Shown here piece by piece: positions 47,634-63,384 of a stretch of 64,000 nucleotides of DNA; the stretch's first letter is position 1, and every line of letters begins with the position of its first letter. The DNA lies in assembly GCA_023515725.1 (NCBI GenBank), contig JALDTO010000164.1, positions 1-64,000 on the forward strand, written 5' to 3'. The notes beneath the pieces are model-generated. The model searched no databases, was not told where the DNA came from, and saw nothing but the letters and a program-made list of their open reading frames with translations. Both the position numbers and the translations under genes were made by a program. This stretch comes from Amoeboaphelidium protococcarum X5 (taxonomy: Eukaryota > Fungi > Aphelidiomycota).

Positions 47634-49741
47634 ATGGGTAAAAAGACGCGTCAAATCACATAGGCAAAGGTATGCAATTGTATCACCAGTATTGTATAAG
47701 TATTAAGTTATTAATGTCTATGTAGATTAAGTTATTGAATAAGCCATTGAAAGGGTAAGTGGTTGCTCAGTACTCTGATGAAGATGAAGATCTGGAATTG
47801 AACAAGGAAGATGTGGAGTTTTTCTAATCAAGCCATGTCGATATGGATAGCCTCGATATGTAATCGGATGATGACTACAATGAAGAATTTAATTTTGAGG
47901 ATGGCCATAAAGCGAAATCTTTTGATAGCAAATTTCTCAATAGAGATCAAGGCTTAATGATAAAGACATCTGACGGTAAATGGATCACCAATGATCGCCG
48001 TCTAAATGACGCGAAGTAAGTCGATTCGGAGGACCCTATAGGAACTGATTAAACATGTGATAGTAACAATGCTCAAGTTGTTGATCAATAGAAAGGTAGT
48101 ACCGATATATCGAGCGGTAGAAAGGTACTCTCTTTTGCCGATAAAAAGATCGAGATTGGCTCTACCGCGGCTCTGATATTACAGAATAACGAGGAAAACA
48201 TTGGTAAATTGAAGGTTATCCGCGCGCATTTAAAAGATGGTGATAAGCGCGTAGTCAAGTTGGCAATGCTCAGTCTGTGTGCAATCTTTGCAGATATTGT
48301 GCCTTCGTATAGAGTCCGAGAGTTGACGGAGAAGGAGCGCGCTGAGAAAGTGTCGAAGGAGGTGCGCAAAGTTCGTGACTATGAAGAAGCTCTGGTCAGT
48401 AATTATAAATAATACGTGGATCAGTTGGATTAACTGGCCAGTAGAAATACATTTTCTGGAAAAGAAAACTCTGCGAAATCTAGTAGCTAGGATTATTCTA
48501 TTTTGTACACTGCGGTGAAATGTCTCTGCGAGTTGGCAGTCTCCCTGTCTCATTTTAACCATAGCTCTCGCGTTATATCTGGCGTTGTGAAGCGGATGAA
48601 TTTATACTTTAATGATAAGGAGCGAGCAGCCGTACATGGATACACTGTTGATGCTGTATCGTCTCTCTGTTGTGATAGTGTAAAGAAAATCATCACGAAC
48701 GATGCGGATGGAAGGACTAGCCTTGAAATTGTGAAGCTAATTGCAGACTTGGTGAAAGTGAAAGGAGCAAAGATTCGAGCATGCGTGCTTTAGCCTTTGC
48801 TTCTCCTTGAGCTCACCACTGATCTCAAGTAGAATGATAGGAATGGTGGTAAGAATAATAAAAGAAAGATGGGTGCACAGGATAAGAAGGCACATATGTC
48901 CAAGAAGTAGAAGAAGCAGTTGAAAGTTCAGAAGGAAGTCGAGCTTGAGTTGAAGGAAGCTGATGCTGTAGTTGGTGTTGAGGAACGCGTCAAGTACCAG
49001 GCTGAAATTTTAAAGCATCTCTTCTCCATTTATGTTCGCGTGCTAAAGTTTAACAATAATAGTCATTTGCTCCAAGTTACGCTGAAGGGCCTTTCAAAAT
49101 TTGCGCGTCTGATCAATGTAGAGTTCTTTCAGGAGCTGGTGATATTTTTGCGCAAAGTCATCGCCAATGATGATGAACTATCGCCTCTTGATGTCATGTT
49201 GTGCGTGTAAACTGGTATGAAGTTGCTCTGTAGCTTTTAAGCTGTCATTATCAATGTTGAGTATAATGACTTTAAGGTTGCTGCATACAGGGCTCTCAGA
49301 TTGGCGATTCCGTACATGCAGTAGAATTAGAATTCGTATGAATGTGAAATGGAAATCACGCAAGCTGTAGAGGAGATGATGAGCAACATGTTCCTGGGCC
49401 GGGGAACGTCGGAATTGAGTGCAAATTCAATGGCGGCCTTCATCAAGCGTATCGCTATCTTAACCACTGCTTTGACATGGCATCAGTCGTAGCTTTCAAT
49501 GATATCGCTGATACATCGAATGCTTTTGAAATCTCCGCAGAAAGTGCTCAATATGATCCAAGAAGAGGAAGATGACGCGTCAGTGTTTCATCAATATAAT
49601 GCTGAGACTGACGATGTCGACAAATGCTTTGCCTTGGAATCGAAACTGTACGAGCTGAGCGTATTGTCTAAGATTCCGAATGCTCTTATTAAAAAAGCAG
49701 TACACAACATTGGATAGTTGACATAGAACGGAATAAATTGA
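47634..49741 (+). CDS. NOC3: Nucleolar complex protein 3; intron 47670-47725
   Basis: KLAMLSLCAIFADIVPSYRVRELTE..KVSKEVRKVRDYEEALVSNYK, LSHFNH, LKGLSKFARLINVEFF, AAFIKRI. Confidence 0.93.
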
Positions 49742-49992
49742 ATTGATACTTTATTATTGAGATTAGTTTTTTTCAATTTTTTTTGTTAACATCTTCAATA
49801 TTTCATATAGAAATTGGCAAAGTCGTGTATGACGCCGGCCTTATGATATGAGAGTTGTAACGTTGTCGATGGATCTACATTGCTACTGTGAATCAGGAGA
49901 CTATTTTTAAATTTCCTCCATTTATTATCTTTTCAACATGTGCTTTACTTTAAAATTTGGACAGTAATAACAGTAAATCTTTGAGAAGAGAT

Positions 49993-51033
49993 ATGTTGCC
50001 GGATACTATTTGGGTCAAAATCGGAATGGGCGCACCTGTAAAGATTGCGATATCTTCATGCATTGATGTTGCTGATGTGATTCGCGCCACCAAAGAGTAA
50101 CTAGAGTTACAAGATCGCTTAGATTAGCTTTATTTCTTAGTACAAGAGGGCCACAAATGGAAATTGCAAAGACCTGGCATGGCCCTTATTAATTTGTGTC
50201 AGAAATATCCTCAAGCTGGATAATCAGATTCAAATTGCATCATTATTAGGAAAATCACAACCGCTTCAAATCACAGAGAAGAACATTATGATTTTCACGG
50301 TGATACTTTTGACCGCGAATTAGAGTAGGAGCGCGATGATACTGATTTATTGATTGAATCCTGGAATTATGCTGTAGAAGTAGCTTCGAAATTTCTGTAT
50401 GGGATTTTTGGAGTCTTTCGCCGTGTCACAGTCGATCTACATTGGTCCACTATTGCATATGTGGTTGTACATCTTGATGACTTGAGGAAATTCAATTTAT
50501 ACTCTTAAACGGGACTCTGCATTGCGCTGCTATTTAGTCTTCATTGTTGGCTTGACTCAAAGCCAGCAGATTTCGCGCTTAGACACTTCACCTCTTCTCA
50601 AAGCAATATGGAACGCGGTAGGTACATGACTCTCCTCACATCATCGTTTGCGCACGTTGATTTTAATCACTTGATATGCAACGTGATATCTCTAGTATTA
50701 TTGGGGCCTGATTTTGATAAGCTGTTTAAAGTTGAAGGCTATGTTTCATTTGTGGTTTTAAGTGGCATATTCTCCAGCTGGGTTAGCGTCAAGACACACG
50801 GCAAACCGTCCATGGGGTTTAGCGGTGTCTTATGCGCTATGGAAGGATATCTACTCATGGCGCACCGTGAAGACGTCCGCCATATATTTGCAAACTATAT
50901 CATTTATTGTATCGCTCGCTGGGATGACCAAATCGATCATGTCGCGCATTGTGCAGGTTTCGCATTTGGACTGGGTTGGTTCAAACTGTTGTAGAGAAGC
51001 TTTAGTAGACGAAAATACATTCGTGGATACTGA
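49993..51033 (+). CDS. Fusion of a Crinkler-type ubiquitin-like header and a rhomboid intramembrane serine protease, 346 aa
   Basis: N-terminus IWVKIGMGAPVKIAISSCIDVADVIRATKEQL..RPG..GQSDSNCIII; C-terminus RYMTLLTSSFAHVDFNHLICN, SMGFSG, IDHVAHCAG in one TGA-free frame. Confidence 0.8.
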
Positions 51034-51331
51034 CCGGAAGGTTGTTAACTAATTAGCAATGAATCGAAAAAGGCTTTATGTTTTATTGGCAGTTTTAAAG
51101 TACTAGTTTCCCCCTTTTAGTCAAGACGGACCTACAGTATGTAGATCAAATGCTCTCTTTCGACTTTGATCACACCGTAGCGCAAGATTTATCGTTCTTA
51201 AAGCTTTTACAGTTTCTTCTGGCCGTACCTAGCTCGCTTATCTTCTTTAGCTTTCACATCTCTCAGAGCTTCGTAGTGAAATTTTCAACCAAATAGAATT
51301 GAAAATTTTCCGTTTATTAAATAGATACGCA

Positions 51332-58974: not shown

Positions 58975-61211
58975 ATGACAGAAGTTTATCCTGGAACTCG
59001 TGGTTTGAATAAGGCTGATGGCGGTGCTGCAAAGCGTCGAGACAAACTCACAAAAAATGACGCTGACCTCCCACCGGTACCCAAGTATAATCAGAAATAG
59101 AGCTGTCCTTCACCTCCATCTGTTCTGAAAGACAAAAAGTCTACAGTGTAGTTTACAAAGGGGAAGCTGCTTGGAGAGGTATGATGTTTCTGATTATGAC
59201 GGTTTAATTTGAGTCATTTAAAACTGTGTAAGAGCGAGTGTAGGGTGGATTTGCCAAGTGTTATGAAGTATGGGATTAGAATGGCACAAGATTCGCAGCT
59301 AAAGTAGTTCCCAAAGTGTCGCTTAAGTCTGAAAAGTCCAAGCAGAAGTTGTTTACAGAGATCAAGATCCACTAGAACTTGAAACATCCTAATATTGTCA
59401 GGTTTAAGCAAGTTTTTGAGGACTCTAGTAATGTGTACATGATTCTGGAGCTGTGTGAGAATAAGACTTTTGTTGAGATGATAAAGAAGCGCAGAAAGTT
59501 GTTAGAAGCTGAAGCTCGGTATTATATGAAGCAGTTGTTGGATGCTTTGACGTATTTACATTAGAAGCGGGTTATTCATCGTGATCTAAAGCTTGGCAAT
59601 CTATTCTTGTCTGGTTCCATGGATATTAAAGTGGGCGATTTTGGTCTGGCTACTATTGTAAAGTATGATGGTGAGCGAAAGAAGACGATATGTGGTACTC
59701 CAAATTATATTGCACCCGAGATATTGTTTGACAGGGAGCATGGACATAGTTTTGAAGTAGATCTATGGTCTATCGGTGTAATTCTGTATACTTTTCTAGT
59801 GGGAAAGCCGCCATTTTAGACTAAAGACGTCAAGGAGATTTACCGAAATATTCGCGAAAATAATTACGTCTATCCAGAAGGCTGTGGAATATCTGCAATG
59901 TCTAAAGATTTGATATCGTCCCTACTCAGCTCTAAGCCTTCTGACAGGCCAACTATACAGGAGATTTTTGACCATCCATGGTTTTAGCTGAATATTCCTA
60001 AACATATTCCAGCGTCTGCTCTTTTGACAGTTCCTGAGCTGTTTGCGACGAATTAAATGGCAATGTTTAACAAGTTGCAAATCTAGAATATGGAGACTCC
60101 TTCCGCTGCCGTAAGTAAGAGGATGCAAGTCATGTCGATACAGAGAGAAGCTGCTGTTCGCCGTACGCCTTTGTCTGATTTGAAGAATAAGTAAAGTCCT
60201 TTAGTTGTGGCTGTGCGTGATGTTTAAGTGACGGCGACTAAACCAGTAACATCACAATCTCCGCTCTGGAATGTGTAAAAGATGTAGAAGGAGAATGTTG
60301 TCGTTGCACCAAAGGAAAGTGTCACTCCAGTGCACAACATTACCGGGACTCCTGCTTCTTCGCTTGCAAGAATGAGTATAAAGAGCGGTACTCCTTCTAC
60401 ACCAGTTACTTACGCGAATAATTCTGACAAAGCTGTGTCGAAGTTGCATATAAGTCCTCAACAGGCTCCTGCTGGTGGTAGAAAGTCTATGCTTGAGTCT
60501 ATGCTGTATCACATTAGTGAAGCTTTGGCGTGCTCAAAATCTGGTAAGCCATTCAAGTTTGGTGTCCCATCATCATCCTCCATCACGGCTCCTAAAGTAT
60601 TTATCAGTAAGTGGATTGATTACTCGAACAAGTACGGACTTGGATACTAGTTAACTAACGGATCTATTGGTGTCCATTTTAATGACTCTTCCAGTATAAT
60701 ATTGGCGGCTAATGAATAGAATTTTGAGTATCTGGAATATGCAAAAGGAACCGAGAGATCTGTGATGAACAGACATGCTTACATTCTTGGTGATTATCCT
60801 CAGTCGTTGAACAAGAAAGTGACACTGCTGAAGCACTTTACCGGTTATATGAACGAGAACTTGTACAAGGCTGAATACGCTTTTCAAGATGTGGACAAGA
60901 CGCAGAATCTGGATTTCCTTGTAAAGTATATGAGAACAAAGCACGCTGTGATGTTTCGTCTCACTAACAGAATAGTGCAAATCAACTTTTTTGATCACAG
61001 CAAGTTGATTCTATCACAAGATGGACTTGTCGTCACATTTATTAATCGCGATAGACAGCTCAAGACGTATTCCCTGGCATAGATTGTATCTACTGAGAAG
61101 GGCGACATTCTGAGTAGACTCAAGTATGCATGTGACATTCTTGATAATCTGACAAAGCCCAAGAGTTCCCAGAAAGAGGCTGGCTCTGCTGAAAAATAAA
61201 ACAAATTTTGA
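58975..61211 (+). CDS. Polo-like kinase (Cdc5/Plo1); intron 59179-59243
   Basis: LGE|[39 protein letters not shown]-box-like RTPLSDLKN, polo boxes [15 protein letters not shown] and [10 protein letters not shown]. Confidence 0.96.
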
Positions 61212-61831: not shown

Positions 61832-63384
61832 AGTAAGTTGTTCATATACAATATCTTTTATTAGATTATTTATGTACTTCATACATTTATAAGTGTAGTG
61901 TCCAAGTTTGTTCGTGCATCCAAGTACCGTAAGTTTATTCATTCCTTATGAAGACAACAGCTAAAACATCCAATAAGTACTATGGTGATTGTGTAGGTCA
62001 CGTTTTTGGTACCGCTAATAAGAGAGAGTAGTGTTATGAGAATCTGAGAGTGTCCCGTAATGCTTGGGACACTAACTTGTGTAAAGCCAATGCTCGTTTC
62101 ATCTCTGTGAACTTGGAAGCTGGCGGTGGTGGTCAGTTTGCTGTGATTCCACTGGATCAAGTGGGCAAGTTGGCTAACGACCTTCCAGTGTTCAGTGGCC
62201 ATACCGGTGCTGTTCTGGATACTGACTTCAACCCGTTCAATGATTACGTGGTTGCCAGTGGATCTGAGGATTGCAAAGTTTGCGTCTGGTCCATTCCAGA
62301 GGGTGGTTTGAAGGAGAACTGCAATGCTCCTGCTTTGTCTTTTGATAAGCACACTCGTAAAGTTGGACATGTCCTCTTCCACCCGACTGCTGAGAATGTG
62401 TTGTTGAGTTCCGGTGCTGACTTGTTGATCAAGTTGTACGACATCAAGAAGGGAGCGGAGAAGCAGGATGTCACTGGCCACCCAGATATTGTTAACTCTA
62501 TCGTTTACAACTATGACGGATCCATGCTGGCAACCACCTGTAAGGACAAGAAGATCCGTTTGGTTGATCCACGTGGCAACAAGATTGTGGCCGAGACTAA
62601 TGGTCATCAAGGTGTGAAGGGAACTCGTGTCTGCTGGTTGGGCGACTCTCAGTACATCATCTCTACCGGTTTCTCCAAGACCAGTGATCGTCAGTATGGT
62701 CTATGGGACTCTAGAAACATGAACGAGGCAATCAAGATTGAGAACTTGGACACCATGTCTGGTGGTCTGATGCCGTTCTATGACCAGGACACTCGCATGA
62801 TTTACCTTGCTGGTAAGGGTGATGGTAACATCCGTTACTTTGAGTTCGAGGTGGCTGAAGATGGACCTCACATGTACTACTTGACTGAGTACAAGTCTGC
62901 CGACCCTCAACGTGGTATTGCCTTCTTGCCAAAGCGTGCTCTGAACATCAACGAGTGTGAGATCTCTCGTGTGTACAAGGTGCATCCTGACCGTGTTGAG
63001 CCAATCTCTTTCAAGGTGCCTCGTAAGTCTGATCAATTCCAGGCTGACATCTTCCCTCCAACTGCTAGCGACAAGCCAACTCTATCTGCCGATGAGTGGT
63101 TCAGTGGTAAGAACGGTAAGCCTACTCTGGTCAGCCTGGAGAAGGGTTTCGTGCCTAGTGCAAAGAAGGAGTTTGTCACTGAAGGTGTCTCCCCAGCTCA
63201 GGCTGTTAATGATCCTCTGAAGAATCCTCAGAGTGAGAAGGAGTACCAGGATGGTTTCCACGTTCTGCGCAAGGAAAATGATGCTCTGAAGAATGAAGTT
63301 GCCCAAAAGGATGTCAGAATTCGTCAGCTGGAGTTGCAGTTGGAGAACCTGATGGCCAACGGTGGTGGCAACAAGGGAAAGTGA
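61832..63384 (+). CDS. CRN1: Coronin; introns 61833-61898 (splits the ATG) and 61929-61996
   Basis: MSKFVRASKYR|HVFG, GHTGAVLDTDFNPFND, YLAGKGDGNIRYFE, VPRKSDQFQADIFP, C-terminal coiled coil. Confidence 0.97.

Follow-up and report, generated by a model that had tools for sequence, protein, structure and literature searches.

A rhomboid-family gene with a predicted ubiquitin-fold head of probable Crinkler ancestry in an aphelid, a chytrid and a blastoclad

In the part of a review of the CR/Crinkler (CRN) proteins available to us, the C-termini listed behind the CR head are nucleases, kinases, NTPases, GTPases and soluble peptidases of the trypsin, zincin and Ulp1 types, with no rhomboid among them (PMC5289972); a similar list is given in the accessible part of a second source (PMC12957317). 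(Where a PMC number stands for a source here and below, the portion accessible to us is meant.) LxL is reported as the only fully conserved part of the CRN head motif LxLFLAK, and the motif HVLxxP is known from oomycete and Rhizophagus CRNs (PMC6131194). Fungal rhomboid proteases, for their part, have been sorted into Pcp1/Rbd1, Rbd2 and ROM-1-like groups (PMC5567314), and the accessible parts of three accounts of rhomboids describe groups without a fusion to a head of this kind (PMC5567314, PMC8778642, PMC7065720); neither crinkler nor rhomboid is mentioned in the searched part of PMC8657485, its supplement text included. Here we describe a gene of the aphelid Amoeboaphelidium protococcarum that joins a ubiquitin-like (Ubl) head to a rhomboid. 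Each domain is well known; of their combination we found no description in the literature searched, nor did the first-pass annotation know of one, and the primary CR survey (Zhang et al., 2016) with its supplements lies outside that literature and could list one.

The gene occupies 49993..51033 on the forward strand of the 64,000-nucleotide stretch of DNA that was analysed (the window), as a single frame of 346 amino acids under NCBI genetic code table 6. Under the standard code this interval contains six TAA or TAG stops, and it is open only if TAA and TAG are read as Gln; the flanking genes for NOC3 and alanyl-tRNA synthetase (AlaRS) are likewise whole only under code 6, and a Lys-to-TAA variant at 50728, within the rhomboid, that is present in the RNA contigs of three runs is consistent with TAA being read as Gln. 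The encoded protein differs at one residue from KAI3645803.1 of A. protococcarum, and two further proteins of this species are 95% and 87% identical to it. In one A. protococcarum assembly, two copies (P0002 and P0004) lie on separate large contigs and are 95% and >99% identical to the query, respectively. Elsewhere in the window, a gene at 61948-63384, which we take to be coronin-like, has TAA or TAG at one of its 17 Gln codons, compared with half or more in the NOC3, AlaRS, Top1-like and Plk-like genes, possibly through avoidance of the reassigned codons where expression is high.

Parts of the window were present in six runs (X1-X6). Four of these, X3-X6, all from one study, skip eight GT-AG or CT-AC introns of neighbouring genes and are therefore RNA, and none of the four has an intron-like joint within the gene. 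In each of the four, a single contig bridges the head and the rhomboid: the contig from X3 (49943..51085, forward strand) covers the gene from end to end plus about 50 nt on each side, contig ends that do not fix the true ends of the transcript, and those from the other three runs cover 50046-50727, 49901-50727 and 50013-50727. In X1, a freshwater metatranscriptome, head and rhomboid were found only in separate pieces, and X2 is likewise piecewise. The contig from run X5 carries a one-base insertion at 50035, in the head, which would shift the frame and which is absent from the full-length X3 contig; it is either an allele or an assembly error. The variants pooled over the RNA contigs of X1-X4 (14 synonymous at 226 sites and 14 replacement at 812 sites; ratio of about 0.28) give a purifying signal over the gene, only three of them falling in the head, too few for it to be judged separately. 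The contigs of the gene in X3-X6 have a depth of 28-34, and those of its neighbours differ several-fold; depth of this kind is unsuited to ranking expression. Two of the spliced introns, 47667-47724 and 59176-59242, overlap the first ATG of the NOC3 and kinase frames, respectively, so that the true starts of both frames lie further upstream.

The head (49993..50262, forward strand; residues 1-90) is confidently predicted to be a beta-grasp domain. Modelled by AlphaFold2 on a 26-row alignment (pLDDT 89, pTM 0.79), it has a strand-strand-helix-strand-strand-helix-strand topology, with predicted strands at residues 5-10, 16-19, 46-52, 55-59 and 83-87 and predicted helices at 26-37 and 65-71. The best VIA-align match to the model is the Ubl lobe of a FERM domain (Z 10.6; 82 residues at an rmsd of 2.4), with many others scoring almost as well, and the top entries have the beta-grasp fold: FERM lobes, ISG15, Ras-association domains and ubiquitin. 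Foldseek agrees on a beta-grasp fold with every row at E >= 0.001, a viral fold search returned generic ubiquitin-like rows only, and the head profile found nothing among PDB sequences (best E 0.79). The head has no C-terminal Gly-Gly, which argues that it is not a conjugated modifier.

The head is probably of CR/Crinkler ancestry, as the first-pass annotation had proposed in calling it a CR header, and the evidence for that assignment is mixed. On one side, Crinkler-bearing clusters occupy ranks 2-3 of its Atlas matches, with 169-170 shared features and a score of 0.88 that has the standing of a lead, Crinkler being annotated on 48% and 18% of the members of the two clusters; in addition, an LxL triad is found on predicted strand 3 (residues 46-52) in 18 of the 26 aligned heads. 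On the other side, the query itself has LYF at the triad, its head is not matched by the Pfam Crinkler model (PF20147), and this model reaches only two of the 26 relatives, at E 0.038 and 0.054 (about 15 bits, under the cut-off of 24.6), and one of ten trimmed heads, at E 0.14. The full LxLFLAK motif is absent from the heads of the 26-row alignment, as is a closing HVLxxP, the last strand being xPLLIRK-like in the relatives and NCIIIRK in the query. We infer a single old capture of a CR head, kept thereafter. We discarded a weak match of the head profile near positions 1046-1114 of the window (E 0.01), which is antisense to a real gene, and no second copy of the head was found within the window.

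Between head and rhomboid lies a variable linker (50263..50433, forward strand; residues 91-147), whose aphelid version, by alignment and charge count, exceeds those of the relatives in length and acidity. It is followed by a conserved, moderately hydrophobic helix (50434..50496, forward strand; residues ~148-168, with T153 invariant), whose family mean hydropathy of about 1.0 is comparable to that of the weaker core helices and which is possibly an extra membrane or amphipathic helix. The rhomboid core (50506..50988, forward strand; residues ~172-332), placed by Pfam, by alignment with GlpG over residues 213-330 and by conservation, comprises the first membrane helix (172-188), the HxDxxHxxCN motif (221-230), GFSG (275-278) and His319; the Pfam Rhomboid model (PF01694) matches residues 209-330 (E 3.5e-17, 63.4 bits against a cut-off of 22.6). 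H221, H226 and N230 of the HxxxxHxxxN motif are kept, and the codons of the catalytic residues lie, on the forward strand, at 50821..50823 for Ser277 of GFSG, which is Ser in all 14 aligned members, and at 50947..50949 for His319, which is His in 13 of them. Ser and His are 42 residues apart here and 39-48 in the family, mostly 42, which is below the 53 of GlpG and thus indicates a shorter gate helix region. A full-length model built on three near-identical rows has a pLDDT of 36, too low to be usable. Judging from the retained residues, the rhomboid would be proteolytically active. The first 30 residues of the protein contain no Arg, have a net charge of -1 and in the fold model belong to the folded head, and by composition a mitochondrial presequence is not evident. 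The first-pass annotation had read head and rhomboid as one frame without such a presequence, with the HxxxxHxxxN motif, the catalytic Ser codon at 50821 and the His codon at 50947; all of this holds, the positions exactly, and the contiguous cDNA and, in the model, the beta-grasp fold that it called for are also found.

The Ubl-rhomboid fusion is a small family across three phyla, the aphelids, chytrids and blastoclads. Its three named carriers are A. protococcarum, the chytrid Gorgonomyces haynaldii and the blastoclad Paraphysoderma sedebokerense, with one or two copies seen per named assembly, and the other members come from metagenome or Logan assemblies; standard-code organisms are among those with the fusion. 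The genes of the family appear intronless. Two of the three named carriers are parasites of algae and G. haynaldii is a saprotroph (10.1101/2023.06.28.546836, PMC11210171). In the P. sedebokerense protein (P0012, KAI9141357.1) Asn replaces the catalytic His, and this member, whose head is intact, is likely to be a pseudo-protease. Over 12 members (P0024 and P0032, with incomplete heads, left aside) the identity is 50.0% for the head and 49.6% for the rhomboid (rho 0.89), and over eight distinct members, the same 12 minus four near-duplicates, it is 47.4% and 47.2% (Mantel rho 0.85, p 0.0002). Such equal and correlated divergence fits a single old fusion inherited as a unit; it is expected of two domains that share their descent and is no evidence on their function. 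The head and rhomboid trees, both unrooted, agree in close pairs and are weak at depth.

A search with the head over 1.84 billion representatives gave 14 matches. Five are full-length and all five have a Pfam Rhomboid domain. Two more extend as far as the rhomboid region, and another six are copies of this gene that are frameshifted or cut short (in five of them the tail matches other frames of a fusion locus); the last, P0016, is ambiguous. A profile search gave 14 matches among 7995 scored candidates, 11 with Rhomboid, three fragments and none with another domain. The first-pass annotation would take a header that is not shared with other effector-like genes as telling against its reading; neither search found the head on any other C-terminal domain, at a recall that is limited (the profile search missed P0006 and P0009 from its own query), so that heads on other C-termini may exist unseen. 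P0016 is the most distant head (~25-29% identity), with a short non-rhomboid tail on an 11.6 kb contig, and is the sole hint of the head on another gene. A metagenome copy, L001:227-1279, has a frameshift in the head, and several short proteins in the databases are parts of similar copies read out of frame. This suggests that copies are born and lost within a single uncultured eukaryote, or else that the assemblies are in error. On the same contig a short frame (L001:3-139, reverse strand), with a coiled-coil-like acidic start and no clear Pfam match, diverges from the fusion gene. At L002:1251-1496, COG6 lies just downstream of another metagenome member, which marks that locus as eukaryotic; its gene order is unlike that of the aphelid. 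Word-based searches with the single protein returned aphelid copies only, and pattern scans, which are insensitive, found no relatives in viral contigs, GTDB genomes or the first metagenome scan. Two further leads were set aside: a tblastn search of plasmids gave only bacterial rhomboids at 23-33%, and no bacterial donor is claimed; the Atlas matches of the whole protein at 0.80, a giant-virus rhomboid cluster among them, are at chance level.

At its locus the gene is separated from NOC3 and AlaRS by 251 and 298 bp (the median of 25 gaps in the window is 192 bp), whereas the CRN-like genes of Bd have a mean gap of 1.4 kb (PMC5364385). The locus is gene-dense, with housekeeping neighbours, and is not the gene-sparse, repeat-rich setting typical of CRN genes. 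No linked sensor or substrate gene was found near the gene here or at L002.

The reading that we prefer, and to which we give an even chance of being correct, is that the CR-type-headed rhomboid is a regulated protease that would cut secretory or surface membrane proteins of the organism itself, with a docking or regulatory head. The absence of a signal peptide or presequence, together with the multi-pass core, suggests that the protein would be inserted in a membrane of the organism itself, either secretory or at the surface; there the rhomboid would cut membrane-anchored proteins of its own cell, and the cytosolic head may dock a partner or regulate the protease, docking being the role that we infer for it. 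Most CRN-like proteins of R. irregularis and chytrids lack signal peptides and may act within the fungus (PMC6131194, PMC5364385). The aphelid lives within the algal cell (PMC3975115), so that a protein at its surface could still reach the host interface without CRN-style delivery. Counted against such action in the organism's own membranes are the algal parasitism of two of the three named carriers, the insertion in the head in run X5 and the finding that oomycete CRN heads are sufficient for translocation (PMC5289972). The patchy spread over three named species, the intronless look and the frameshifted copies in one uncultured lineage are conflict-like more than housekeeping, and the patchy distribution and frameshifted copies leave room for a conflict role.

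The first-pass annotation went further and suggested that this could be a host-delivered effector; the head would then route the rhomboid to the host side, there to cut algal membrane proteins. This we consider unlikely. The predicted beta-grasp head speaks for it, with the LxL triad that most relatives have on the third strand and the Atlas Crinkler lead, as do the soluble peptidases among known CR C-termini (PMC5289972), the parasitism of algae by two of the three named carriers, and the patchiness and broken copies of the family. It has to contend with a head that was found on this rhomboid only, in searches of limited recall, with an old and co-inherited fusion, the missing HVLxxP, low copy number and gene-dense housekeeping surroundings; moreover, the saprotroph G. 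haynaldii carries the fusion and the algal parasite Paraphysoderma has lost the catalytic His. We also know of no CRN route for a multi-pass cargo without a signal peptide. The boldest form of the proposal is equally doubtful. In it, the family would be the first case of a Crinkler-type effector whose cargo is an intramembrane protease; it would have been handed between parasites living in water and zoosporic fungi that penetrate walls, and would cut algal membrane proteins at or in host membranes, with a pseudo-enzyme version in Paraphysoderma. On present evidence we would not class the gene with the Crinkler effectors.

The same patchy distribution, pseudo-enzyme copy and many broken copies would also suit a module for self-defence or cell death. 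Its head would sense, or dock on, an immune signal or one derived from an invader, and its rhomboid would free an effector tethered to a membrane within the cell of the organism itself. Crinkler domains are annotated at the N-termini of fungal NLRs (PMC9815663) and free-living eukaryotes also have CR proteins, but neither the aphelid locus nor L002, where COG6 is the neighbour, has a linked sensor or substrate gene, and the purifying signal and the steady conservation of the head point elsewhere; we hold this to be quite unlikely. A divergent mitochondrial paralogue or orthologue of PARL/Pcp1, with the head gained in place of the presequence, is more doubtful again: fungal S54 proteases are mostly mitochondrial (PMC5567314), and the conserved hydrophobic helix ahead of the core is what a 1+6 layout requires, but the N-terminus is not presequence-like in composition, the Ser-His spacing of 39-48 is below GlpG's 53, and the family is too patchy for an essential Pcp1 orthologue. 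In favour of a PARL/Pcp1 relationship there is also the HFTxSxxNxxxGR-type loop, which we take to be similar to that of PARL-like rhomboids. Finally, two genes merged through an unusual genetic code or a mis-assembly might be suspected from the six in-frame TAA/TAG codons and the frameshifted head of one RNA contig; code 6 is valid window-wide, single RNA contigs bridge the domains and the same fusion is found in standard-code organisms, and an artefact can be practically dismissed.

The Ubl-headed rhomboid of aphelids, chytrids and blastoclads would add a fungal rhomboid group to the three described (PMC5567314). It offers a way to ask what Crinkler-type heads do, deliver a protein to a host or dock it within the cell, and because a multi-pass cargo is ill-suited to the soluble route that is assumed, the location of the protein decides between the two. 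The family is also a sign that an aphelid may have Crinkler-like heads, in contrast to the Paraphelidium transcriptome, which seems to be without crinklers in the account available to us (PMC6299283). Parasites of mass algal cultures are among the carriers of the family.

Three known systems invite comparison. Beta-grasp docking domains, namely the F0 and F1 lobes of FERM domains, Ras-association domains, ISG15 and ubiquitin variants, are the best structural matches to the predicted head (Z 9-10.6, rmsd 2.2-2.8), but at 6-17% identity and with near-tied scores, and a shared fold implies no function. The family resembles the CR/Crinkler proteins (CRN, PF20147) in placing an enzyme behind an N-terminal head with a predicted beta-grasp fold, in the LxL triad that most relatives have on the third strand, in the absence of a signal peptide, in its patchy occurrence in zoosporic fungi and in the broken copies of one lineage; it differs from them in that its cargo is a multi-pass membrane protease, in that its heads are without LxLFLAK or HVLxxP and score below the Pfam cut-off, and in that the head was found fixed to one C-terminus in the searches made, at low copy number in the named genomes. 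With the rhomboids (MEROPS S54, PF01694), of which the GlpG proteins of E. coli and H. influenzae are the reference, it shares the HxxxxHxxxN motif, GxSG and the His helix, in that order, but where those have a presequence or the GlpG N-domain, the protein described here has a head predicted to be a folded Ubl domain.
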